Shown piece after piece: positions 5,153 to 55,176 of a stretch of 64,000 bases of DNA. The notes below the pieces were generated by a model. The model ran no database searches and was not told where the DNA came from. It worked only from the letters and a program-made list of their open reading frames with translations. Made by a program: the position numbers and the translations under genes. The stretch comes from a virus. Lineage: Duplodnaviria; Heunggongvirae; Uroviricota; Caudoviricetes. The DNA lies in the IMG/VR virus record IMGVR_UViG_3300028797_000098, positions 102,321-166,320 of that record. One strand, given 5' to 3'. How positions within the stretch are numbered: position 1 is the stretch's first letter; every line of letters starts with the position of its first letter.

Positions 5153-5578
5153 ATGAAACTTATAAAATTATTACATAGCACACTGTCTGATTTGACCGCC
5201 GAATATCCGGGCATCATGTGGAGTACAATGGTTATTGATGCAATCGTGCTGCTGTATCTGGATTTGATGGGACTTAATGCGCTTGGCTTTGAACATTATA
5301 CCATAGTATCCCATACTGTAATGGGTGTATATGGCGCAATAAATTCCATATTCTTTATCGTAGCCGTATTATATATGGCCGGGGATGATCCGCTTGAATA
5401 TGAACCGACCACCGAAGAACGTAGGGAACGGTACGGGAAGGTAATTGCTCCTATGTTGATATTGTTCCCGTTATTGCTTCCGATGTGGGTGGGATTTGTC
5501 ATCTCGCATGCAGTTGCTTTCATAGGCTCATTCATATATGAGATATACAAGAAACTGGAAAATTTGATACTGAAGTAA
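5153..5578 (+). CDS. hypothetical membrane protein
   Basis: Multiple hydrophobic segments. Confidence 0.7.
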   Translation: MKLIKLLHSTLSDLTAEYPGIMWSTMVIDAIVLLYLDLMGLNALGFEHYTIVSHTVMGVYGAINSIFFIVAVLYMAGDDPLEYEPTTEERRERYGKVIAPMLILFPLLLPMWVGFVISHAVAFIGSFIYEIYKKLENLILK

Positions 5579-32575: not shown

Positions 32576-32803
32576 ATGAATATGCCCGACGAAGAAAAGA
32601 AATTGGATGAGTTACTTAAGGCCGTCCCAAGACCCAAGATAACCATCGAGATAGAAACCGGCATTTTCTGGCCCTTTGTGTGGTTCTTTTCGAAGTTTGG
32701 ACTATGCAAGATGAAGGAAAAGTGCCAGGCAGAGAATCCGGGATACAATGTCCGGTATGATTTCGAGGCAGCTTACCCATATAAATCCGATAAAAATTTT
32801 TGA
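32576..32803 (+). CDS. hypothetical protein
   Basis: AAGGA upstream. Confidence 0.6.
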   Translation: MNMPDEEKKLDELLKAVPRPKITIEIETGIFWPFVWFFSKFGLCKMKEKCQAENPGYNVRYDFEAAYPYKSDKNF

Positions 32804-32839
32804 ATATCATATAAGCTGCAATAAATTTCACTTTTCTGG

Positions 32840-32868
32840 TTGCCAAAAGCAAAAACATTTGCTACATT
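32840..32868 (+). promoter_or_regulatory. sigma70-like promoter heading the RNA island
   Basis: TTGCCA-N17-TACATT followed by non-coding structured sequence. Confidence 0.85.
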
Positions 32869-32873
32869 TGGAA

Positions 32874-33284
32874 CAGCCGGGAAGAGCGGCGATTTGGCCG
32901 AGAGCCATATCAGAAGATTGACATGTCGGAAGCGTTTAAATAGTGCAGCGGTAGCACGGGTTCTTTATTCACCGTTTGTTTCCCGTGCTACCGAAAAGTT
33001 TAAAGGTGGCCGCCTGCAGCGGCATCGTAGTTCCTCGTCGTACCAAAAACATGGCATGGTCTCAATAGTAAAGAGTTTAAGGGTCACTTGTGGCCGTCGA
33101 ACTCTCCCCATGTACTGGGCGTGCAAACTGTGCGCCGACGTAACGACCTAAGCCCCTCGGCTGGGGGCGTTGTTCCTGGACTGACCGTAGTACGTTGGGA
33201 AGGGAGCGATCGTAGCAGTAGGAAGAGTCAGCCCCCCTCTGGGAGATCTTGCCGTCAAAGGCGCCGTGAGGCAAAGGGGCACAT
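32874..33284 (+). ncRNA. candidate ~410-nt structured ncRNA, family unknown
   Basis: Starts at the predicted TSS; contiguous hairpins including a 12-bp stem CGGTAGCACGGG/CCCGTGCTACCG (32949-32993). Confidence 0.55.
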
Positions 33285-33358
33285 CGGAGTTTAGCTCAGT
33301 CTGGTAGAGCATCTGCTTTGGGAGCAGAGGGTCGCTGGTTCGAATCCAGTTACTCCGA
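33285..33358 (+). tRNA. tRNA-Pro(UGG)
   Basis: Cloverleaf, TCTGC-TTTGGGA-GCAGA anticodon arm, GGTTCGAATCC; no encoded CCA. Confidence 0.95.
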
Positions 33359-33359
33359 C

Positions 33360-33676
33360 GAAATTAAACAAGAAGAGCGGTTTGAAATCGACCTTTGGTG
33401 CTCGCCCGGTATCGTGTGGCTGCAGCGCATGCCGGATAAAAAGGTTAAATGTGTCGAACAATTTGGAACAGTCTGGATGAACAATTAAGTGGTCCACATG
33501 CCTTTGTTTGAGGTCTTCAGTAATGAAGGCACTCCCGTTAGGGAGGGTGGCATGTGAGGGGTAGCGAATCGGGATTCCCCTTGTTCCGTTGAATGTCGCC
33601 AATTGGATGATTGCGTTGCTTGGATACTCATTCGATTGGTTTCTTGGGACGATAAGCAACTAGTCCCATGCTCTCT
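33360..33676 (+). ncRNA. candidate structured RNA segment
   Basis: CACATGCC/GGCATGTG multiloop (33495-33556) plus other hairpins; no credible ORF. Confidence 0.4.
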
Positions 33677-34036
33677 GGGGGTGCTTTGGTTTCGACTGGG
33701 CATCTGACCATGGAGGCCTCGCCCGAAGTTAGTCTGTGGCTTCGTAAAAACGGACTGAAAGAATAAATGCTAACAATGCATACGCCTGCCGCATGGCTGC
33801 CTAATCGGTAGTTATGCTGCTGCCTGGGACAAGCGAGAGGAATAAATCCCGGGACCAAGTGCATATCTCTCGAATCTAGGCCGGAGTTATGGATTTGCAT
33901 GGCCTACCTTACTTTAATCCAGAACCCTCACTGGTTAGATCACCTTGGGCAACAGGTCAGGGCCCGAAACGATTGATGGCGATATGGTTGAATTGGAAGG
34001 AAGTTTAGGACAGGGGTTCGAACCCCCTCACCTCCA
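33677..34036 (+). ncRNA. ssrA: tmRNA, tag ANNAYACRMAA* (33769-33804)
   Basis: GGGGGTG/CACCTCC acceptor with G3-U70, GGTTTCGAC, T-arm GGGGTTCGAACCCC, resume codon GCT after ATAAAT. Confidence 0.95.
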
Positions 34037-34043
34037 CGAATAG

Positions 34044-34133
34044 ATATGTGCTCGTAGGCCCAATAGGCTGACGGACACCCGGGAAGGTCCGTTGGAATTG
34101 ATCTGACTAGGGGCCGGGGAAACGGGCACATAT
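34044..34133 (+). ncRNA. candidate ~90-nt rod-shaped RNA
   Basis: 12-bp closing stem ATATGTGCTCGT/ACGGGCACATAT with nested GGCCC/GGGCC and ACGG..ACC/GGT.CCGT. Confidence 0.5.
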
Positions 34134-34145
34134 TGTTGAATTTAT

Positions 34146-35097
34146 GTCCTCCTGCCGGTAGGACCGCCCTTCAGCACGGGGTAGATTGCATATACGGTTA
34201 CGAGTGTTGCCGATGTTGCATGAAGGCAGTGGACCAAAGTATGACCTGAGGACCCATCTTGGTGGATGGGCGTGGCAAGATGCTTCGTAACAGATTCACA
34301 GGGTCAGAGGCTTCCCCTGACAAGGGGTTCTCGTCTAGCATCGGCTAAGGTAGACGAGCTCGTAAAATCGAGAGCACCCGGATTACTTAATTGTGGCTCA
34401 GGGTGTGCCGAGAGTTTCATTCTCCTGGTCCCTTCGTGGATACGGGTTGCACTGTGGACTGCGTACCAGTCACAGCAGCGTAAAGCGGTAGGCCGGCGCT
34501 ATAACCGGCAGTGTGTTTGAAAAACGCGGTCGTCTAAACGAGCAGGCGTTAATAGCGTCTGTGCTTAGGACCCCGGCGCCATCGTGGCCACGAATGTATC
34601 AAATAACGGATGTGGCAAACAGCGCGGGTGATATAGGTTCCGTCCCTATCCGCAACGCTTATGGAACGCCTTATTATTAAGTACGGTGTAAGGCCGGGCG
34701 GTCCTCCTCCCCGAGAAATCGCGGAGAATGGGACAGCCAAAGTAGGAAATTTTAAGATTCCGGGATGTTCTATAAAACGTCATCGGTGAAGATTGTTAGG
34801 GCACATCGTCTGGTTGAGGGTGAAAGCCTGTGGAGACCCACGCCTAACCGCACCGGTGACATCGAATTTAATATCCGCAGAACCAAACGCAGACTCCGGG
34901 TCTCGAGAAACTGGATATGTGTGGCCTACCGGCTAAGGTAGCGGAAAATAGTCGCTTGCTTACTATTGTACCTTGGACCCACCATGTACATGCGTACCGT
35001 GGCACAAGGCGCCTCTGGAAGCGAAAAATGCGAGAACGGCAAGCGGCAAGGGGTGGTTCTTCCCTGGTTTAGATCATGAACCACCCCGGCGCTTTTA
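34146..35097 (+). ncRNA. candidate ~950-nt large structured ncRNA (or array of RNAs), family unknown
   Basis: More than 20 near-contiguous hairpins and multiloops, no plausible ORF, ends in the 10-bp stem GGGGTGGTTC/GAACCACCCC followed by a short T run. Confidence 0.6.
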
Positions 35098-35098
35098 T

Positions 35099-35171
35099 TG
35101 ATACATAGCTCAGTTGGTAGAGCCCGCGACTGTTAATCGCGTTGTCCCTGGTTCGAGTCCAGGTGTATCAG
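35099..35171 (+). tRNA. tRNA-Asn(GUU)
   Basis: TGATACA/TGTATCA acceptor, CGCGA-CTGTTAA-TCGCG. Confidence 0.95.
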
Positions 35172-35181
35172 CTAAACCATC

Positions 35182-35335
35182 ACGTACCCGATGTCTGCCT
35201 ACTCGGAGTAGGAAGCATGTAGGGCCATTTGAATGCACCGGTATGCAGAGTAACGCCCTTGATGGTAAGGGTTCCGCTTCACCGGCTATATCCGCTCGAC
35301 TCGGATCATCTAGGTGACCGCAGATAAGGGTACGT
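35182..35335 (+). ncRNA. candidate ~155-nt closed RNA
   Basis: ACGTACCC/GGGTACGT plus TGTCTGC/GCAGATA closing stems enclosing hairpins. Confidence 0.5.
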
Positions 35336-35340
35336 CTTTT

Positions 35341-35413
35341 TCCGGAGTAGCTCAGTTGGTAGAGCAGTTGCCTTGTAAGCATCAGGTCGGGAGTTCGAGC
35401 CTCTCCTCCGGAG
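35341..35413 (+). tRNA. tRNA-Thr(UGU)
   Basis: TCCGGAG/CTCCGGA acceptor, loop CTTGTAA, GTTCGAG T-loop. Confidence 0.9.
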
Positions 35414-35443
35414 CTAGAATATAAACGCTGTTGAGTTTTTAGT

Positions 35444-35519
35444 TGCGGGTGAGTGGAACGTATATACCATTCGAGCCTCATAAGCTCCGAGATACTGGGT
35501 CAGACTCCCAGACCCGCTA
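35444..35519 (+). tRNA. atypical tRNA-Met(CAU), initiator-like
   Basis: GCGGGT/ACCCGC acceptor with 1:72 mismatch, loop CTCATAA, T-arm CTGGG-TCAGACT-CCCAG. Confidence 0.7.
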
Positions 35520-35572
35520 CTAAGAATTTGTACGTGTTAAAAGCAAAAACAATGTGTATATTCGGTCGATTT

Positions 35573-35779
35573 AAGTTCGATGTGTAACTTAATGACACCG
35601 TTCTAAACCGGGCACCATCGAAACTTTTTTGAGATAGAATAAGGTCTAAGCCGAAAGTCGCGGGTCTTTAGTTCCAAATGACTAGAACACCGACCGGGGC
35701 AACCCTCGTTGGAGGCTCTGGGTTAAAGTCCCAGTTGATCCGAATAGCGGCGCAAGCTGTCGAACGAGTAGGCTAGGTC
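35573..35779 (+). ncRNA. candidate multibranched RNA
   Basis: AGTTCGATG/CATCGAAACT hairpin and CTAAGCC/GGCTAGG multiloop with a GCAA-capped helix. Confidence 0.4.
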
Positions 35780-35855
35780 ACAGTGAGAAAGGACTGTCTT
35801 GAATTTGAAATTGTCGCAGTGCACGGCGACATACTGGACGCATGGAAGAAAAACA

Positions 35856-35937
35856 GGCTGCGTGGTGTAGTTGGAAGAACATACCCGCCTCGGGCAACTG
35901 ACGCGAGAGACGCTAGGTTCGAAACCTGCTGTAGCAC
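35856..35937 (+). ncRNA. tRNA-like RNA lacking an anticodon loop
   Basis: Acceptor GCTGCG/TGTAGC, D-arm GTGT-AGTTGGAAGA-ACAT, T-arm AGG-TTCGAAA-CCT, central arm CGC-C-TCGG-GCAA-CTGA-C-GCG. Confidence 0.55.
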
Positions 35938-36029
35938 ATTGGCCGGGTTACCGGTTGAAGGAGTATTCCGTGCGGGTGGCAACAAAGAGCCACACATGCA
36001 GCCCTCTGGCCAGGTAGGGAAATTTAAAC

Positions 36030-36103
36030 GGACCGGTAGCTCAGTTGGTCAGAGCGGCGGACTCATAACCCGTTGGTCCCTGGTTCAAGTCCAGGCCGGT
36101 CCA
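36030..36103 (+). tRNA. tRNA(CAU), probably Ile2 (lysidine type)
   Basis: GGACCGG/CCGGTCC-A acceptor resembles bacterial Ile2; loop CTCATAA. Confidence 0.85.
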
Positions 36104-36163
36104 CTTTTGCCCAACGGGCGCCCGCTGAACCATGGATAACATCTGGCGCATCCGGTAAGCAGA

Positions 36164-36250
36164 CGGCGCATAGGTATCGTCTAATTTCCATAGGACGCCT
36201 CCCTGTATTCGGGGGAAACCCGGTGTTGGAATCCGGAAACCGTGCGCCGA
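36164..36250 (+). ncRNA. degenerate tRNA-like RNA (8-nt anticodon loop, extended acceptor)
   Basis: CGGCGCA/TGCGCCG + GGT/ACC, D-like TCGTCTAA..TAGGACG, CCTCC-CTGTATTC-GGGGG, CCGG-TGTTGGAAT-CCGG. Confidence 0.5.
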
Positions 36251-36270
36251 TCACTTTTAATGGAGGAAAA

Positions 36271-36516
36271 ATGGCTGACAAAAACGAATTCCACAATGAC
36301 TTGGAAGTCTATTGCTCCGCTAAGGAACACAAGGGAATGGTCCTTGACCTTATAAGGGTGTACGGACCGACAGCCACGCTGAAGGATGTCCTTGCCAGCA
36401 TTAACTATCAGATGGACAAGTACGAGAACCTTTTGTTCATGCACAACCTGTTAGAGACCAAGAGTGTTGCGGGTGCCGTGCTGTCGTCCCTTAGCGATTT
36501 GAAGGAAACTGAATGA
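36271..36516 (+). CDS. hypothetical protein within the RNA island
   Basis: GGAGG upstream. Confidence 0.7.
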   Translation: MADKNEFHNDLEVYCSAKEHKGMVLDLIRVYGPTATLKDVLASINYQMDKYENLLFMHNLLETKSVAGAVLSSLSDLKETE

Positions 36517-36531
36517 ATGAATGACTAACAA

Positions 36532-36630
36532 ATGCGCATAGTGTAGCTTCCGTTGATCACGGGAGTCTCCTGCCCTGTCGATTCCGGGTCGGCCAAAGTC
36601 AGGCAATGAAGGTGGATGCCTGGTGCGCAT
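36532..36630 (+). ncRNA. candidate ~100-nt closed RNA
   Basis: ATGCGCA/TGCGCAT closing stem; inner TTCCG-TTGATCA-CGGGA hairpin. Confidence 0.4.
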
Positions 36631-36641
36631 GTTTTTAACGA

Positions 36642-36717
36642 GTCCGTGTCGTCAAGTTGGAATGGCCCCTCTCTCCTAAAGAGGTGTTTTACACAGGTTC
36701 GAGCCCTGTCACGGATA
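36642..36717 (+). tRNA. tRNA-Arg(CCU)
   Basis: GTCCGTG/CACGGAT acceptor, CCTCT-CTCCTAA-AGAGG, ACAGG-TTCGAGC-CCTGT. Confidence 0.9.
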
Positions 36718-36739
36718 CTAATATCGAATGGAGAACAAC

Positions 36740-36916
36740 ATGAAAGAGAAGAAGAAAGAATTTGTTGAGGAGACCCAGGAGCAGAAGGATGCTCGCTGGA
36801 AGAAACAGGCCAAGGCGGCAAAGAGTTTCGCGGTGTCTAGCGGCATTGACTTGAAGAAGGTAGCTCGCGAACGCCGCAATAACGAATGGGCCAAGAATAA
36901 GGATAATTGGTACTAA
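36740..36916 (+). CDS. small basic hypothetical protein
   Basis: GGAG upstream; K/E/R-rich. Confidence 0.55.
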   Translation: MKEKKKEFVEETQEQKDARWKKQAKAAKSFAVSSGIDLKKVARERRNNEWAKNKDNWY

Positions 36917-36962
36917 TAAGCTTGACGCTTCCGACAAGAGCTTTGCGTTCAATGTCCAGCAA

Positions 36963-36992
36963 GGCGTCCCGTTGCCACGGGGCGCCTTTTTT
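36963..36992 (+). terminator. intrinsic terminator closing the RNA island
   Basis: GGCGTCCCG-TTGCCA-CGGGGCGCC-TTTTTT. Confidence 0.8.
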
Positions 36993-37000
36993 GCTATATT
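36972..37000 (+). promoter_or_regulatory. sigma70-like promoter TTGCCA-N17-TATATT
   Basis: -35 is the loop of the terminator hairpin; ATG 6 nt downstream. Confidence 0.8.
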
Positions 37001-37006
37001 CCCAAC

Positions 37007-37717
37007 ATGAAATATGACATGTTTGACAGAGAATCCGTAAAGAGAGTGCTTGATACGTTTGAAGCACATAGCCTGTTCATCAACAAAAAGTACGAGGCGT
37101 TTAAATCCAAGAATAACTACTGGTCATCCGACCGCGAACGATTCGTTGGACGGTTCTTCAAAAAGTATCGGGGCAAGTTCTTTATCCTGATTGACAAGGA
37201 AGTCATTGGATATCACGATGAAGTCAATGATACTGCATTTTTCAGCAGTGTTGACCCTGTATCCATCTATTCACGCAAGTATAGTGAACATTCCTACCAT
37301 TATAGGGGCGAGCGTATTACCCGAACGGTCAAGAAGTTCCTGTGCGTATCTTATATCAGTGCTGTCAATACTAGTGTCAGTTCCGGATATATTGAAATGT
37401 CTTGCTATGACCTGTTTGGTGACAAGGTTAACTACGTGCTCGACCTGCATATGCTGGCAAATATGCAGTTCAAAGAAATTACCGAGGAAGAGTTTAACCA
37501 GATGGCTAGACTGTTCCAGGATGACCGCGATGACCGTGAATTCAAGGTAACCCGTTACCTTGATGCCGATGAACTGAAGTCCAGGAAGCGCAGCGAAAGG
37601 AAGAACCTTATCAAGGTAGGCAGGTATCTCACCAAGGAAATCGTTACGGTCATGGCGAAGGATTCTGATGACGCTATGAAGAAATGTACCAATGCAATCG
37701 AGGTATCGTCATGTTAA
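37007..37717 (+). CDS. hypothetical protein (leaderless candidate)
   Basis: ATG 6 nt after the -10 box. Confidence 0.75.
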   Translation: MKYDMFDRESVKRVLDTFEAHSLFINKKYEAFKSKNNYWSSDRERFVGRFFKKYRGKFFILIDKEVIGYHDEVNDTAFFSSVDPVSIYSRKYSEHSYHYRGERITRTVKKFLCVSYISAVNTSVSSGYIEMSCYDLFGDKVNYVLDLHMLANMQFKEITEEEFNQMARLFQDDRDDREFKVTRYLDADELKSRKRSERKNLIKVGRYLTKEIVTVMAKDSDDAMKKCTNAIEVSSC

Positions 37718-43390: not shown

Positions 43391-44333
43391 AAGTACCCCA
43401 TTTTTCAAAGACGTTACCTTGGAAGGTAAAAAAGAAAACCGTCGCAAGATTCTTGTGATTGCTGGCGTTCATGGCAATGAACAGAATGCCGTGCTTGCTG
43501 CATACCGCCTGTATGAGTCGTTCGCACAGGCGACCGAGGATGCTTATAAGAATGAAAATGACATCAGGTTTATCATTGGTGTGAACAAGTGGGGACTCCT
43601 GACCAACAAGCGCGAGTTTGGCCAGCGTACAGACGTGTATCCGGACCCAATCCAAAAGGACAAGCCGATTGATTTCAACCGTGTATTCACCAAGAACCAT
43701 ATTACCGAACTGAACGAGGATGCCGCTGCGGTGCGCGATTTTATCCAGGAGGCTGTCGAAGGCGCTGACATTGTGATTGACGTGCACAATTCGCCGGCAT
43801 GCACCAACATGGTGCTGCTTAACAATGATGAATATGCGGCATCGACAATTAAGTTCATGAACGAATGCCACATGGATACCGACTACATGGTTTGCGAATC
43901 CCAGACCAGTACCATCAAGAAGTATGCCATTGAACAGGGCAAGGTTGGCTTTACTGTGGAACTTGGCGGCATGACGCTTGCTGGATTGCAGGATGGAACC
44001 ATCGTCCTTGACCAGTTTGCCTTCCTTAAGACGTTTATTTCTTGGATTGACCAGTTTATGCCTAAGTTTGAAAAGGGGGCACTGTTGCTTCCTGCACAAT
44101 TATGCATGCCTATTTATGCACATGCATACGGGCTTATTGATAAGGTGAATTTCCACCGATGCGCACCGCTGAAGAAGGGCGAAGTATTTGCTACCATGAT
44201 TACGGACAGCGACAACCCGGACGATGCCGAGTTTAAGGCTCCATGCGACGGCTTCCTTGTTGCATGCGAGGACCACCGTGCCGTGAAGCCTGGTGACGAA
44301 ATATTCTATTGGCAGCCGGTTGTAAACGGTTAG
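43383..44333 (+). CDS. succinylglutamate desuccinylase/aspartoacylase (peptidase M14-like) family hydrolase
   Basis: VIAGVHGNE, DFNRVF, IDVHNS, FTVELG, C-terminal APCDG..V..V.PGD module. Confidence 0.8.
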   Translation: MSKSTPFFKDVTLEGKKENRRKILVIAGVHGNEQNAVLAAYRLYESFAQATEDAYKNENDIRFIIGVNKWGLLTNKREFGQRTDVYPDPIQKDKPIDFNRVFTKNHITELNEDAAAVRDFIQEAVEGADIVIDVHNSPACTNMVLLNNDEYAASTIKFMNECHMDTDYMVCESQTSTIKKYAIEQGKVGFTVELGGMTLAGLQDGTIVLDQFAFLKTFISWIDQFMPKFEKGALLLPAQLCMPIYAHAYGLIDKVNFHRCAPLKKGEVFATMITDSDNPDDAEFKAPCDGFLVACEDHRAVKPGDEIFYWQPVVNG

Positions 44334-44341
44334 AGGTAAAA

Positions 44342-44884
44342 ATGGCCAAATTGCTTGCTCGAATGAAAATGGAATATGATACGCTGGAACGTATCGAAAA
44401 ACTGAGGACGCTATCCAAGGTTCTCAATGAACATAAGGATTGCATAATCAAGATAGTGGAGCTCGGTACGATTGGCGATGATCCAGTATTCTACATTCGT
44501 CCGGGCAAGCACGTTATCAATTATAACTCGAATACCCGTTATGCTGAAATGATAATCACCTCTAAGGGGATGCTGTCATATGAACAGTCAGTTATCGACC
44601 CAGGTGATCTTCCCCGAGTGAACGAGTGGAAGAAGTATTGCATTGAATGTGCCATGAGATATGAAATAACGGTCTATGATGAACTCCCGGATTCGGAAAT
44701 TCGCCATGCCGAACGCCCGTTCATTGAAGAAATAGTCGCCTTGCAGCGCAAGATTAAGCAAGTGCAGCGGGAATACCTCAAGGCAATGAAAATTACTCAG
44801 TGCATGGTATGGCCTAACGATCCCCAGACCAAGGAATGGCTAGAGAAACATCCCACGATATTACATGATTACAGGAAGGTGTAA
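44342..44884 (+). CDS. hypothetical protein
   Basis: GAGG upstream. Confidence 0.7.
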   Translation: MAKLLARMKMEYDTLERIEKLRTLSKVLNEHKDCIIKIVELGTIGDDPVFYIRPGKHVINYNSNTRYAEMIITSKGMLSYEQSVIDPGDLPRVNEWKKYCIECAMRYEITVYDELPDSEIRHAERPFIEEIVALQRKIKQVQREYLKAMKITQCMVWPNDPQTKEWLEKHPTILHDYRKV

Positions 44885-46141
44885 ATGTTTACCGAAATCG
44901 CATGCAACATCATCAAGGCCACCGACGACAAAGTGCCTGATATCGAGGCTGCAGAGTTTAACCTGAAAGGGAAGAAAGCCAACCTTGACCTTGTCCAGAA
45001 GGAATATGAACAAGCCAAGAAATCGCTTCATAAGGCTAAGATGGCGCAATACAATGCCCGAAAGAAGGTCGTGCAGGATTATATCGACAATGTCCTTATG
45101 AACATGCGGGCGCCTGAAACCTACGATCCAGACCGTGTGAAGAAGCTGCGCAGCATCCTGGCAAGCTATGACGAAAAGGACACCTATGTCAAGCGTCTTG
45201 AAATCCTGACCGCAATCCGCGAACTGCAACTAATTCTTACGGCATTCCCCATCGCCCGCCGAGTGGGCAACATTGTCCGCGAATGGACAGGGAACAAGGA
45301 TGTCGTTATCAGCGAGGATGGCAGTAAAGTCAGCGTAGGTAAAAATGTCATCATGCGGACAGTGGAACAACTGGACCAGAGTGACAGTTTCATATCCAGC
45401 ATATGTCGAGAATACAAGTATAGACACCTGTTGCAATTCTATGGAAGCGAAGCACATTATTCCGGTACTCCAATGGGTTATATTCATGAATTCTGGGAAA
45501 GCAGGTGCCTTGCCCTGCCACTTGATCCTGACATAGTGATTGGTGAAGCCCCGTCAGATGAAGTTGATTTTAACCGGTCAAAATATTCCCGTGCTTTCGA
45601 TTGGTGTAAAAATACTGACAAGTATTCAATAAGGGATATTGGCACTGAATTGTTCAAGGTTGACGGGAGTCGTTTTTCTGGCATGGTTGCCATGTTAGCA
45701 GAGTGTGACCCCAGTGTTGCCGAAAGCACAGTATCCGACATTGACTGGGCAAGCAACTTCATTGTGCTGAATCCGTGCCTTTTTACTGTCAATGAGGTAA
45801 TGAGTAATTACGGACGGTTTACACAGGCCCACTATAAGGGTTGCACGGACATGTATCATAATTCCAAGTCTCACCTTGATTTTTACATCAACCGCATCAA
45901 CGAGAAATTGCAGGAATGTGCCCCCAAGACTGTCAAGGATATCAAGTTCGATGCGGACTTGATGGCGGTCACCTGGCGCGATCCGTATGACAAGGACATG
46001 GCGTTTGACCCGGACACATGTGAAATGCAGCATCCGTCGCAGACGGTCCATAAGCTGGATGTGCGAAATGTTATATTGTACTATGTCGTTATGTATGCCT
46101 ACAAGCACATACCTGGCATGAAGAAGCCGGACGAGGTTTGA
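44885..46141 (+). CDS. hypothetical protein
   Basis: Long ORF, N-terminal coiled coil. Confidence 0.8.
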   Translation: MFTEIACNIIKATDDKVPDIEAAEFNLKGKKANLDLVQKEYEQAKKSLHKAKMAQYNARKKVVQDYIDNVLMNMRAPETYDPDRVKKLRSILASYDEKDTYVKRLEILTAIRELQLILTAFPIARRVGNIVREWTGNKDVVISEDGSKVSVGKNVIMRTVEQLDQSDSFISSICREYKYRHLLQFYGSEAHYSGTPMGYIHEFWESRCLALPLDPDIVIGEAPSDEVDFNRSKYSRAFDWCKNTDKYSIRDIGTELFKVDGSRFSGMVAMLAECDPSVAESTVSDIDWASNFIVLNPCLFTVNEVMSNYGRFTQAHYKGCTDMYHNSKSHLDFYINRINEKLQECAPKTVKDIKFDADLMAVTWRDPYDKDMAFDPDTCEMQHPSQTVHKLDVRNVILYYVVMYAYKHIPGMKKPDEV

Positions 46142-46162
46142 CAATAATTCCCGTTAACATAC

Positions 46163-46191
46163 AAAAAGCACCGGTGAGAACCGGTGCTTTT
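46163..46191. terminator. bidirectional intrinsic terminator
   Basis: AAAAA-GCACCGGT-GAGA-ACCGGTGC-TTTT between convergent genes. Confidence 0.85.
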
Positions 46192-46212
46192 CCGTTTAAT
46201 GTGTAGTATCGA

Positions 46213-47151
46213 CTAGCGGCACTTGCGTTCAACTGCGTTGTAACAGATGGCGCGGATTGCATCGTCGGAGAGGTGGTCGGAGTTGCCGAACACGCTTTCG
46301 AAGCATGCGCGGAGGTCGGAAGTTGCGATGGATTCCTCGGCAACATTGTCCGAGAGAGCCTTCTTTGCAAAGTTCCATGCCTTCTTTGCGATGCGGCCTG
46401 GACGGGTCGGGTCGTACTTCATTGCATCCTTGAACTTGCTCCAGAACCCTGGCTTCTTTTCTTCCTTCTTTGGTGCATTGCCATTCTGTTCAGGCTTGGC
46501 TTCGGCCTTGGCATCGGGCTTCTGATTGGCTTCTTCCGTCTGTTTGGCTTCAGCCTTCTTCTTTTCCTCGGCTGCCTTCTTTTCGTTGTTCCGGTCGTCA
46601 ATCCACTTCTTCTTGTCAGCGTCGTACTTTGCACGCTTCATTTCAGGCGTGATGAAACCACCGGCACCGCGCTCACGCTTGACCTTCTTCTTGGATTCGT
46701 CAGCCCATACGAGGCCGCCTTCTTCACTGTCAAGGTATTCCTCGATAGTCGGACGGAGAGTGTTTTCAACCCATGCGTCGAGTTCGCCCGGGGCGATTTC
46801 GGCATATTCTTCCAGGGTGTGTTCGGCTGTCTTGACCCTGCGCTTCATGCCGTTGAGCTGCTTGCCCCACTGCTTGTTGCGGGCTTCGACATCGGAGTTG
46901 TAGGCATTCTTCTCATCCTGGCTCATCTGCTTGCTTGCCGGGCCATTATGCGTACGCATGGAAGGGTCCTTGGTCCTGGAAATCTCGGCCATGTTACGGT
47001 CAAAGATGCCTTCAAGCTGGGCACTTCCCGCAAACACCTGGCGGGCTTCCTGGATGAACTGTTTTTCCCGTTCAGTAGTGGCAACACTTTCAAGACGGGC
47101 TGTGAAATCAAGAAAACGTTTGCATTTTTCGTTGGTCATGGAGAACTCCAT
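46213..47151 (-). CDS. hypothetical charged low-complexity protein
   Basis: Isolated minus-strand ORF, K/E/A-rich; TATAAGCTAT upstream. Confidence 0.75.
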   Translation of the reverse strand: MEFSMTNEKCKRFLDFTARLESVATTEREKQFIQEARQVFAGSAQLEGIFDRNMAEISRTKDPSMRTHNGPASKQMSQDEKNAYNSDVEARNKQWGKQLNGMKRRVKTAEHTLEEYAEIAPGELDAWVENTLRPTIEEYLDSEEGGLVWADESKKKVKRERGAGGFITPEMKRAKYDADKKKWIDDRNNEKKAAEEKKKAEAKQTEEANQKPDAKAEAKPEQNGNAPKKEEKKPGFWSKFKDAMKYDPTRPGRIAKKAWNFAKKALSDNVAEESIATSDLRACFESVFGNSDHLSDDAIRAICYNAVERKCR

Positions 47152-47196
47152 TTTAATGTTTATTCGCGAATATCTATAGCTTATAAGTTTTCGTTA

Positions 47197-47225
47197 TTGC
47201 CATTACAGTCCGTTTTTGCTATATT
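47197..47225 (+). promoter_or_regulatory. sigma70-like promoter TTGCCA-N17-TATATT
   Basis: Consensus; ATG 6 nt downstream. Confidence 0.85.
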
Positions 47226-47231
47226 CAGCAT

Positions 47232-47573
47232 ATGACAAGAGAGAATTCCAATAAAAGCTTGGTTGCCGACAACACCAGGCTGCAACATGAAGTAGATAAG
47301 CTTTCCAGGGCGCTCCTGGAAGTAAAGCACGGCAAGTCATTCTACATGGTTTCAAGCGAAACGTCCTTCATCAAGGACGGCGTTTACCGCACATCGCACA
47401 CTCAGCAGTTCTATTGCCGCAAGAAGGATGCCATCATGTTCATGAAGTCGGCGATTGACGAACTCCCGAATGACACTGAAATAAAAGTTAACTGGTCATC
47501 CGCGACATCGGTAACATGCACCGGTGAAAACATCTTCTTTAACTGCAAAGTGGAAAAGATTAACCCGATTTAA
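47232..47573 (+). CDS. hypothetical protein (leaderless candidate)
   Basis: ATG 6 nt after the -10 box. Confidence 0.7.
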   Translation: MTRENSNKSLVADNTRLQHEVDKLSRALLEVKHGKSFYMVSSETSFIKDGVYRTSHTQQFYCRKKDAIMFMKSAIDELPNDTEIKVNWSSATSVTCTGENIFFNCKVEKINPI

Positions 47574-47575
47574 GT

Positions 47576-47860
47576 ATGTTTACGATAGCCAACATGTTAG
47601 CCCAGATGAACGACGGTATCCACCATGTGTCCGATTTCCTCATGGTGGACGATACGGTGCATTACATATCGCCAAAAAACAAGTCATTGGACTTGACTGT
47701 TCAGCTGTTGCCGATACCCAGGGATTCCTTTATTGACGCAATCGATCCGATAGCAGGTGACGATTGGGAAATCATGGAATCCCTGTACGGCAAGTATAAC
47801 TCTTTTGCAATGGAACCGGGTACCAATAAATACTACGCATGGTACGATAACGACAGGTAA
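47576..47860 (+). CDS. hypothetical protein
   Basis: Packed run. Confidence 0.65.
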   Translation: MFTIANMLAQMNDGIHHVSDFLMVDDTVHYISPKNKSLDLTVQLLPIPRDSFIDAIDPIAGDDWEIMESLYGKYNSFAMEPGTNKYYAWYDNDR

Positions 47861-53724: not shown

Positions 53725-55176
53725 GTGAACTACCCACAGCCTAAAGGCTGTGAGCTTCGAGTTTTCGCTTCAACGGAGCCGCTTGTGCTAACCCAGTAGA
53801 ACTGGACTGCATAGAGGCGGCTACCTCAGCGGAGGCGTGTTCCACGCACTCAGCACGTTTAGTCGTGCCAAACAAGAGTACATTACAGGCGGAATGCCAG
53901 TCTCTGGGCTTGGTGTATCCGCAATCACAATGATATGTGCGTTCATCCAATCCAATCTGATTGACTGCACCGCAGACCGGACACATCTTGGTTGTCGGCA
54001 GCCACTTGGACAGCACGAATGCACGGTCTGCCTTAACCAGCATCTTAATGCGCTGTTTAAGGGCACCCATGCAAGAATGCTGGACTTGCTTGCCGAACCA
54101 CGTCTGGTGCCAGTTCTTGATTTGCTCGTCCTGTATGTAGATGACATCGTAATTGGACACAAGGTCGTGATAGATTTTGTTGCAGATGTCCTTACGGATA
54201 TTTGCAACATGTTCATGCTCACGGGCAAGCTGCTTCCTACAGTTCCACCGCCGCTTGGAGTCCTTCTCTTTCTTGTGCCTATTCAACATCTTTGATAGGT
54301 ACTTCAGGTACTCGGTTTCTTGCACTTTGCAATCGTAGGTCTTGTTGTCCGATGTCGTTATCGTGTTCTTGATGCCGAAGTCCAGGCCGACACTCCGGCG
54401 AGTGCGGTTTCTCGGTTCCTTCGGCAACATAATGGTGAGTTTTACATAGTAGCCGGACGCCTTGCGAATAAGCTTGGCGTCGGCTATCTCGTATTCCTCA
54501 AATTCTATCTGATGCAATCCATTCACCTTCAGCTTCCTGAACCCAGGAATGGTGATATGGCTTGCGTCCAGAATCTTCGTGAAACCCGTAATGATGGGGA
54601 TGCAGTTCACTTCCGACTTGAACTTCAATGCACCAACCTTGATTCCTTTCTTCTTGGCTTTTGCAAGGTTGATGATGTCTGTCTTCTTCTGGGCCACAGT
54701 AGCCCTGTGGAGAACAGACGGTAGTGTAATGGTTGAAGTGACCGGATTCTTGTCCTTGTCGTAGTGGACTACATCCTTGTGCTCGGTGTACTTGTAGTCG
54801 AACATACTGTTGTCGGGATTGTCCTTGGACAACGACAGCATGTCGTTGATTACCCATTTCGCTTCCTTGAAGCACTGGGCCAGTTTCTGGAAGGTCTCTT
54901 TCGGGTTGTGCCGTATGGACACTTTGAGCTCAAAGACACGACATATCTGCGACTTACGACGGGCATGAGTCTCAGCCATGCTCGCCTTAATTTTCGCCTT
55001 CGTATCTTCGCTTCTTATCAGTTCCATAATAAGTTCTTGACTATACTTATAGTTTAGTAGTTTTACTCAATAAATATAGCTATTTTAGTGTACATAAAAT
55101 GTTATTTATTTCTTACATCTGCTATCGGCGGGTCTTACCCACGCCCTAAAGGGCGTGAGCTTGCGACCGCCCATTT
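53725..55176 (-). mobile_element. tnpB-only IS200/IS605 (IS1341-type) element, 1452 bp
   Basis: Left end AAATGGGCGGTCGCAAGCTCACGCCC-TTTA-GGGCGTGGG after TTGAC; right end GCTCACAGCC-TTTA-GGCTGTGGGTAGTTCAC; no tnpA. Confidence 0.9.
53741..55027 (-). CDS. tnpB: RNA-guided endonuclease TnpB
   Basis: RuvC-I VGLDFGI, RuvC-II IYIQDEQI, Zn finger CPVC...CDCG, RuvC-III RDWHSACN. Confidence 0.9.
   Translation of the reverse strand: MELIRSEDTKAKIKASMAETHARRKSQICRVFELKVSIRHNPKETFQKLAQCFKEAKWVINDMLSLSKDNPDNSMFDYKYTEHKDVVHYDKDKNPVTSTITLPSVLHRATVAQKKTDIINLAKAKKKGIKVGALKFKSEVNCIPIITGFTKILDASHITIPGFRKLKVNGLHQIEFEEYEIADAKLIRKASGYYVKLTIMLPKEPRNRTRRSVGLDFGIKNTITTSDNKTYDCKVQETEYLKYLSKMLNRHKKEKDSKRRWNCRKQLAREHEHVANIRKDICNKIYHDLVSNYDVIYIQDEQIKNWHQTWFGKQVQHSCMGALKQRIKMLVKADRAFVLSKWLPTTKMCPVCGAVNQIGLDERTYHCDCGYTKPRDWHSACNVLLFGTTKRAECVEHASAEVAASMQSSSTGLAQAAPLKRKLEAHSL

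Follow-up and report, generated by a model that had tools for sequence, protein, structure and literature searches.

Positions 34040–35098 of the window (the whole stretch of 64,000 nt of phage DNA that was analyzed) are a real, conserved, structured non-coding RNA locus of about 1 kb. This large RNA locus is new; Rfam does not contain it, and it differs from GOLLD and ROOL. On the available evidence, a chain of autonomous modules is more likely than a single integrated ornate fold. According to the best explanation, in which we place slightly more belief than doubt, the locus would represent a new non-coding RNA family in a tmRNA/tRNA operon, composed of about ten autonomous modules, and its product would be a passenger stable RNA released by tRNA-processing enzymes.

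The RNA island and its tmRNA

The parent IMG/VR record (G000) has a length of 203 kb and an estimated completeness of 52%, and thus the phage genome should comprise about 400 kb. The record contains 41 tRNA genes and one tmRNA. Thirty-three of the tRNA genes form one tight array outside the window (G000 genome coordinates 44241–47779) with spacers of mostly 3–15 nt; therefore, the kilobase spacers of the second, distinct RNA island (32.8–37.0 kb of the window) are not ordinary tRNA spacers. The order in this island is tRNA-Pro, tmRNA, candidate RNA, tRNA-Asn, tRNA-Thr, tRNA-Met, and tRNA-Arg. The island is bracketed by one promoter-like and one terminator-like site:

32840–32868, + strand: promoter-like site (TTGCCA-17-TACATT with TG) at the head of the island; consensus match only
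33677–34039, + strand: phage tmRNA (Rfam RF00023, 106 bits; ARAGORN)
34040–35098, + strand: candidate RNA
35099–35172, + strand: tRNA-Asn (GTT), no encoded CCA (Rfam tRNA model and ARAGORN)
36961–36988, + strand: strong terminator-like hairpin (12 bp and T-run) closing the island; consensus match only

Based on these sites, the island is predicted to be a single stable-RNA operon with a promoter near 32840 and a terminator near 36961. A TTGCCA-type site is also present upstream of the next protein gene at 36972.

The tmRNA is complete and spans positions 1–374 of the RF00023 model. Its tag is ANNAYACRMAA in the window and ANDAFACRMAA or ADNAFAYSAAA in the relatives. CCA is not encoded; CGA stands in its place, and thus a mature 3′-end requires cleavage and the addition of CCA.

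Several other features of the surroundings were observed. The most conserved piece of the island comprises about 200 nt (35600–35803) of the tRNA-Thr/tRNA-Met spacer; it is 95–97% identical to the related contigs L019 and L023, compared to 75–83% for the rest of the island. ARAGORN at low threshold made five extra calls in the island, all on the + strand; a Met-like element was predicted at 35448–35520 and an Arg-like element at 35856–35937. The common orientation of the low-threshold elements suggests that they are real pseudo-tRNAs or tRNA mimics. A TnpB/IS605 OrfB-type gene is located at 53741–55027 on the − strand (PF01385, PF07282; phrog_506), and genes of this type also adjoin the homologous loci in L019 and L021.

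Conserved structure and distribution of the RNA

As the initial annotation had claimed, the region is gene-free, ORF-poor, and helix-dense on the + strand, and it ends at tRNA-Asn (35099). The annotation let the RNA begin at 34146. The conserved RNA indeed ends before tRNA-Asn, but its start had to be moved to 34040, directly after the tmRNA, and the additional domain (M0) covaries.

The fold of the single sequence 34139–35097 had an energy of −353 kcal/mol, compared to −331 ± 5 kcal/mol for 20 dinucleotide shuffles (z = −4.3). When the two strands were compared, the values were −392 kcal/mol for the + strand and −351 kcal/mol for the − strand. RNAalifold analysis of an alignment of 10 homologs (A3) yielded 202 pairs, 37 of them with compensatory double changes, compared to 18 ± 2.4 (maximum 25) such pairs in 300 shuffles. 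The consensus energy was −195 kcal/mol, in contrast to −110 ± 6 kcal/mol for column-shuffled alignments (z = −13), and −164 kcal/mol for the opposite strand. In the consensus, 98% of the cells were paired, and this value dropped to 36–42% when the partners were slid by 1–3 columns. The short ORFs of the window are broken in the homologs by frameshifting indels and stops, and coding potential was rejected on this basis. The controls of fold and covariation, together with the destruction of the ORFs in the relatives, thus identify a genuine structured non-coding RNA.

The initial annotation had named 11 helices, nine of which are kept in the relatives, six with compensatory or consistent changes. 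The latter are CTCGTCTA/TAGACGAG, GCACCC/GGGTGT (AUAUCC/GGAUAU in L023), CTGTGGACTG/CAGTCACAG, GCCGG/CCGGC, the nested ATCGGTG...CACCGGT domain, and the final GGGGTGGTTC stem. The CCCATC/GATGGG helix is also kept in the relatives but is invariant. GGCGGTCC/GGACAGCC turned out to be an enlargement, specific for the window, of a hairpin that the homologs have at the same spot. One helix, GTCAG/CTGAC, was not supported, as its 3′-arm is deleted in L023, leaving a CCC-GUAA-GGG hairpin. Two helices, GCCCTTCA/TGAAGGC and ATATCC/GGATAT, are ambiguous, with alternative helices competing for these sequences.

A blastn search of GenBank phage records with the candidate region gave no match, and thus no cultured relative was found. 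A search of viral contigs for synteny via the neighbouring proteins was also negative. A homolog of the flanking protein encoded at 37007–37717 led to contig L019, which carries the same island. The most conserved block of the alignment of the window and L019 was then used as a DNA search pattern; it retrieved L023 and L024 from viral contigs and 14 true loci from metagenome contigs. The collection of homologs that the initial annotation had proposed thereby grew to 10 distinct full-length versions and three partial relatives, with covariation among them. The full-length versions have lengths of 812–1167 nt (the shortest being L032) and identities of 63–99%, reside on uncultivated giant-phage contigs, and have the 5′-block, the 3′-block, and the terminal hairpin in common. 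The three further relatives (L040, L046, and L114) contain only some of the modules. L040/L030 and L046/L026 have the 5′-modules in common with the family and diverge after them; in L040 and L046, the whole 3′-half has been swapped for unrelated sequence. The replacement is a non-coding block of 398 nt (L040 4695–5091, L046 7516–7912) with 94% mutual identity. L040 has about 2 kb without ORFs from the tmRNA to the next tRNA, with a tRNA-like stretch near 5357–5425. In L042, the 5′-part resembles one lineage and the 3′-part another, and this mixed affinity suggests recombination inside the RNA.

Other searches did not extend the family. A first 16-mer pattern gave only chance matches, the pattern GGCGCCTCTGGNAGCGAAAAATG had no match in viral contigs, and CCGGCGNCATCGTGGCCA matched 56 stretches, all by chance except the already known L023. 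The 424-kb phage G001 has only tRNAs in common with the window. On the contigs of more distant homologs of the flanking protein (P0020, P0015, P0009, P0003, P0012, and P0006), the island is missing or truncated. The sample label "STEW19" of one related-protein contig may indicate a rumen origin. The invariant stretch of module M1 (see below) had three chance matches in G+C-rich bacteria among 185,579 species genomes, and thus no prophage copy was detected. From these sequence searches, the family seems to be limited to a single clade of uncultivated giant phages. A literature search found no paper describing this RNA; some of its short hairpins could be included in a published collection (PMC10690425), which has 8,495 unnamed motifs from IMG/VR.

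Modular architecture

The region is a chain of about 10 helix-closed junction modules, joined by linkers of 2–6 nt. The modules were defined by block-by-block realignment and were mapped in each relative by profile searches:

34040–34137, + strand: M0, helix-closed multi-hairpin domain directly 3′ of the tmRNA; RNAalifold with 7 sequences, 26 pairs, 10 covarying
34146–34234, + strand: M1, junction domain; 14 sequences, 28 pairs, 10 covarying
34235–34413, + strand: A, optional 180-nt multi-hairpin insert; window and L023 only, 3 compensatory pairs between both copies
34423–34519, + strand: M2, three hairpins; 13 sequences, 23 pairs, 10 covarying
34523–34663, + strand: M4, four-way junction; 32 pairs when the stand-alone paralogs are included, 18 of them with compensatory changes
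34658–34778, + strand: M5a, optional, hairpin enlarged in the window; GCGGG-GNAA-CCCGC at that spot in homologs
34779–34860, + strand: M5b, optional domain of nested hairpins with GUCAUCGGUG/CACCGGUGAC as closing helix; 27 pairs, with consistent changes and 1 compensatory one
34866–34945, + strand: M6, three-way junction with CCGC/GCGG as closing helix; invariant loop UCUCGAG on one hairpin
34948–35048, + strand: M7, multi-branch 3′-domain; M7 and T together, 34 pairs, 7 covarying
35050–35098, + strand: T, terminal hairpin (35050–59/35078–87); 3 covarying pairs

The closing helix of M0 is AUAUGUGC/GCACAUAU in the window, compared to UGCAUGC/GCAUGCA in the relatives; M0 was found in seven of nine relatives checked and is missing from L023 and L046. 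M1 starts 8–116 nt past the end of the tmRNA in all nine relatives checked. Its helices are P1 (34146–34156/34225–34234) and a long hairpin (34187–34198/34209–34220), and between flanking helices that vary, it contains a 30-nt stretch, CGGUAGGACCGCC(C/U)UUCAGCACGGGG(U/C)AGA at 34156–34185, that is invariant in 14 sequences. The three hairpins of M2 (34429–31/34438–40, 34449–61/34467–81, and 34492–96/34505–09) are accompanied by the invariant stretches GCGUAAAGCGGUA and CAGUGUGUUU. M4 is formed by P1 (34526–29/34650–53), P2 (34532–35/34568–71) with an extension hairpin (34542–49/34555–62), P3 (34573–79/34622–28 and 34587–91/34612–16), and P4 (34633–37/34645–49). M7 is closed by GUCGCUUGC/GCAAGCGGC (34951–59/35039–47) and contains the invariant GGCGCC...AGCGAAAAAUG. 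The T hairpin is followed by GGCGC and by a U-run (35093–96) running into tRNA-Asn. It falls short of an intrinsic terminator, as its loop has 18 nt and the GGCGC leaves a 5-nt gap before the U-run, and the terminator scan made no call there.

The set of modules differs between members: A, B, M3, M5a, M5b, and a second copy of M6 are each present in some members only, and M6 is duplicated in L019, L023, and L048. M3 has a length of 152 nt, is nearly invariant, and occurs in nine of the 10 full-length relatives (e.g., L023 3834–3984, L019 3925–4075). It was found neither in the window nor in the whole 203-kb record, and it is also missing from L040. M3 may be a separate RNA family.

Modules were also detected apart from this RNA. 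In L046, tRNA-Arg(ACG) and tRNA-His are separated by exactly one M4 copy of 139 nt, and M4-like copies are present in the tRNA-Arg/tRNA-His spacer of L040 and between tRNA-Asn and tRNA-His in L114. L114 also contains M2, which follows tRNA-Thr there and is preceded neither by M1 nor immediately by a tmRNA gene. The occurrence of M4 and M2 outside of this RNA indicates that the modules are autonomous folding units; probably, they are also autonomous functional units.

The initial annotation had proposed a giant ornate RNA. A large structured non-coding RNA is indeed present, but one integrated fold of the GOLLD/ROOL type was not found; the covarying helices are local, and modules are optional. 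A search for stacked covarying column pairs yielded only local helices with a span of up to 80 columns and no long-range covarying helix, with the qualification that the homologs represent about four independent lineages and that a long-range helix or pseudoknot of invariant bases is invisible to covariation. RNAalifold proposed two long-range candidates, AAAGCGG 34482–89/CGCUUU 35088–95 and GUGUG 34511–15/CACGC 34839–43, both of which have invariant bases or one-sided changes. Modularity alone is compatible with a single functional giant RNA, because the module order is fixed in all 10 members, notwithstanding loss, insertion, or duplication of modules, and because tRNAs are embedded in linkers of GOLLD (PMC12286853).

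Two invariant elements are also relevant for this question. The M6 loop UCUCGAG(A/U)A is invariant in all 10 full-length members and is presented on five different covarying stems. The loop has 11–13 nt and contains the palindrome CUCGAG (34902–34907). Its CUCG is complementary to CGAG in the apical loop of M1; L046 lacks M6, and its M1 loop has a different palindrome, CCAUGG. No loop that could pair with the altered M1 loop was found in L046 or L040. The palindromic and complementary loops are a hint at loop-loop contacts within or between molecules, and as the bases are invariant, this hint is beyond the reach of covariation. The M1 30-nt stretch and the M6 UCUCGAG loop are likely sites of functional contact with a protein or with an RNA, the latter either a different RNA or a second copy of this one. 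A search of the 203-kb record for antisense targets of the invariant stretches retrieved nothing beyond chance 9-mers.

The locus might encode a single giant ornate RNA with an integrated fold, functionally analogous to GOLLD and ROOL. Its modules would be domains of one tertiary or quaternary architecture, and it would self-assemble into an RNA-only multimer, e.g., via a CUCGAG kissing loop. In its size of 0.8–1.2 kb, its phage origin, and its location in a tRNA/tmRNA island, the RNA agrees with GOLLD and ROOL, and GOLLD also tolerates variable regions and embedded tRNAs (PMC12286853). The very short linkers, the loops described above, and the fixed sequence of modules, whose 5′- and 3′-ends are conserved throughout the 10 members, would also fit. 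However, no long-range covarying helix was found, the nearly invariant M3 is dispensable, M4 and M2 exist alone elsewhere, L040 and L046 carry an unrelated 3′-half, and with about 20 loops, a single palindromic one may well arise by chance. Therefore, we regard this possibility as unlikely, albeit with enough in its favour to be taken seriously. A more far-reaching proposal is a new giant (0.8–1.2 kb), multi-domain, tmRNA-coupled class of phage RNAs in which palindromic loops (M6 CUCGAG; M1 UCGA or CCAUGG) drive GOLLD/ROOL-like RNA-only self-assembly and which acts on ribosome rescue or tRNA supply in infection; we consider it speculative and rather improbable.

Known families and possible function of the RNA

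No known Rfam family was found, as the initial annotation had expected. A search of the whole window with Rfam 15 at gathering score, including GOLLD, ROOL, RNase P, introns, and tRNA, gave no match in the candidate. A search of 32800–37500 at E ≤ 10 retrieved inside 34140–35098 only chance-level models of eukaryotic lncRNAs and miRNAs, and L023 likewise had no family match at E ≤ 10. The comparison with the GOLLD and ROOL models, which had also been suggested, was negative as well: GOLLD (RF02032) had no match at E ≤ 10 in G000, G002, and G003, and ROOL (RF03087) had none in the window and L023. In Rfam 15, RF02032 is indeed the accession of GOLLD, and RF01998 denotes group-II-D1D4-1. The ROOL model also had no match in this record and two related phage records, in a search the control of which also gave no signal.

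Is the RNA nevertheless a very divergent member of a known family, i.e., GOLLD, ROOL, RNase P RNA, a group I/II intron, or the intervening part of a two-piece tmRNA? A weak match to the permuted tmRNA model (RF04321, tmRNA_permuted) at 34004–34111 reached 18 bits (E = 1.2), compared to the cut-off of 47 bits; the upstream tmRNA is complete, and this candidate was rejected. AGGGUGAAAGCC in M5b is reminiscent of the J11/12 region of RNase P. However, the module with these RNase P-like words is optional, and L019 and L048 do not share the words. Together with the negative Rfam searches in the window and L023, these results make a divergent known family very improbable.

GOLLD and ROOL are large (0.6–0.8 kb or more), intricately folded RNAs of phages and prophages that have variable regions and often reside in tRNA islands, and GOLLD sometimes has embedded tRNAs (PMC12286853). 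The present RNA resembles them in being large, intricately folded, variable in parts, encoded by phages, and located in a tRNA island. The location in a phage beside tRNA genes and the length of about 800 nt or more that are typical of GOLLD are thus found here as well, and they describe a common habitat, not homology. The differences are considerable: neither a match in sequence or structure nor evidence for the long-range pseudoknots of GOLLD and ROOL was obtained, the most conserved part is the 5′-module in contrast to the 3′-region in GOLLD, and unlike GOLLD and ROOL, the present RNA is tied to the tmRNA gene and its modules occur independently elsewhere. With respect to the homo-oligomeric RNA-only nanocages of GOLLD and ROOL, the palindromic loop is the only hint in the present sequences.

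Another explanation denies the RNA any function in trans. The modules would be cis-acting spacers that serve folding, the order of processing, or the nuclease resistance of the tmRNA/tRNA precursor, or they would be decayed and re-used tRNA genes. The modules indeed occupy exact spacer positions. M4 has a tRNA-like connectivity (2 nt, 1 nt, 5 nt, and 0 nt between its four helices) and a 5-bp arm with a 7-nt loop of the GGUUC type, and it takes the place of a tRNA before tRNA-His; the pseudo-tRNA-like elements that ARAGORN at low threshold called in other parts of the island, without exception on the + strand, would fit as well. However, the Rfam tRNA model and ARAGORN at default settings recognized no module inside 34040–35098. 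Furthermore, an invariant 30-nt stretch and an invariant loop amid a divergence of 20–35% argue for sequence-specific contacts rather than plain stem-loops, and the 33 tRNAs of the same phage with their short spacers indicate that long spacers are not needed for processing. Taken together, this explanation appears doubtful to us. The low-threshold ARAGORN calls within the RNA (34404–34483 and 34481–34569) contradict helices that are supported by covariation, and tRNA ancestry of the modules was rejected.

The preferred explanation, a passenger stable RNA in the tmRNA/tRNA operon, has a precedent in phage T4. Species 1 and 2 of T4 (rnaC and rnaD) are non-tRNA stable RNAs that are co-transcribed with phage tRNAs and are freed by tRNA-processing enzymes. 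The present RNA is similar in its position between tRNA and tmRNA genes in one predicted transcription unit and in its presumed release by processing, and the stand-alone M4 of about 139 nt in a tRNA-tRNA spacer of L046 is of the same kind as the T4 species. T4 species 1 and 2 have only 120–140 nt, in contrast to about 1 kb and roughly ten modules in the present case, and homology is not expected. As CCA is not encoded, the operon transcript would be cut at the 3′-end of the tmRNA by RNase Z-type cleavage, and an RNase P cut at the 5′-end of tRNA-Asn would set the 3′-end of the RNA. By analogy to the release of small stable RNAs from the T4 tRNA cluster, both cuts would free one passenger RNA of about 1,059 nt. 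The modules probably stay linked, because they have no detectable tRNA features; the absence of a tRNA-like module and the linkers of 2–6 nt make a single RNA the default product. We infer the processing, the stability, the action in trans, and any connection with the function of the tmRNA. The RNA keeps its place right behind the tmRNA and contains invariant elements; both observations hint at a sequence-specific partner in the translation and ribosome-rescue toolkit of the phage.

To our knowledge, very few bacterial and phage non-coding RNAs of more than 500 nt are known. The structures of GOLLD, ROOL, and OLE have been solved and revealed unexpected RNA-only assemblies. The family described here adds a kilobase-scale RNA supported by covariation that is modular, contains a strictly invariant 30-nt element, and has a constant link to a phage tmRNA. 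Its 10 full-length variants with natural deletions and duplications of domains are material for structural and assembly studies. In addition, the family is a test case for the construction of large RNAs by the addition and shuffling of autonomous modules, which circulate between tRNA genes as small passenger RNAs as well.
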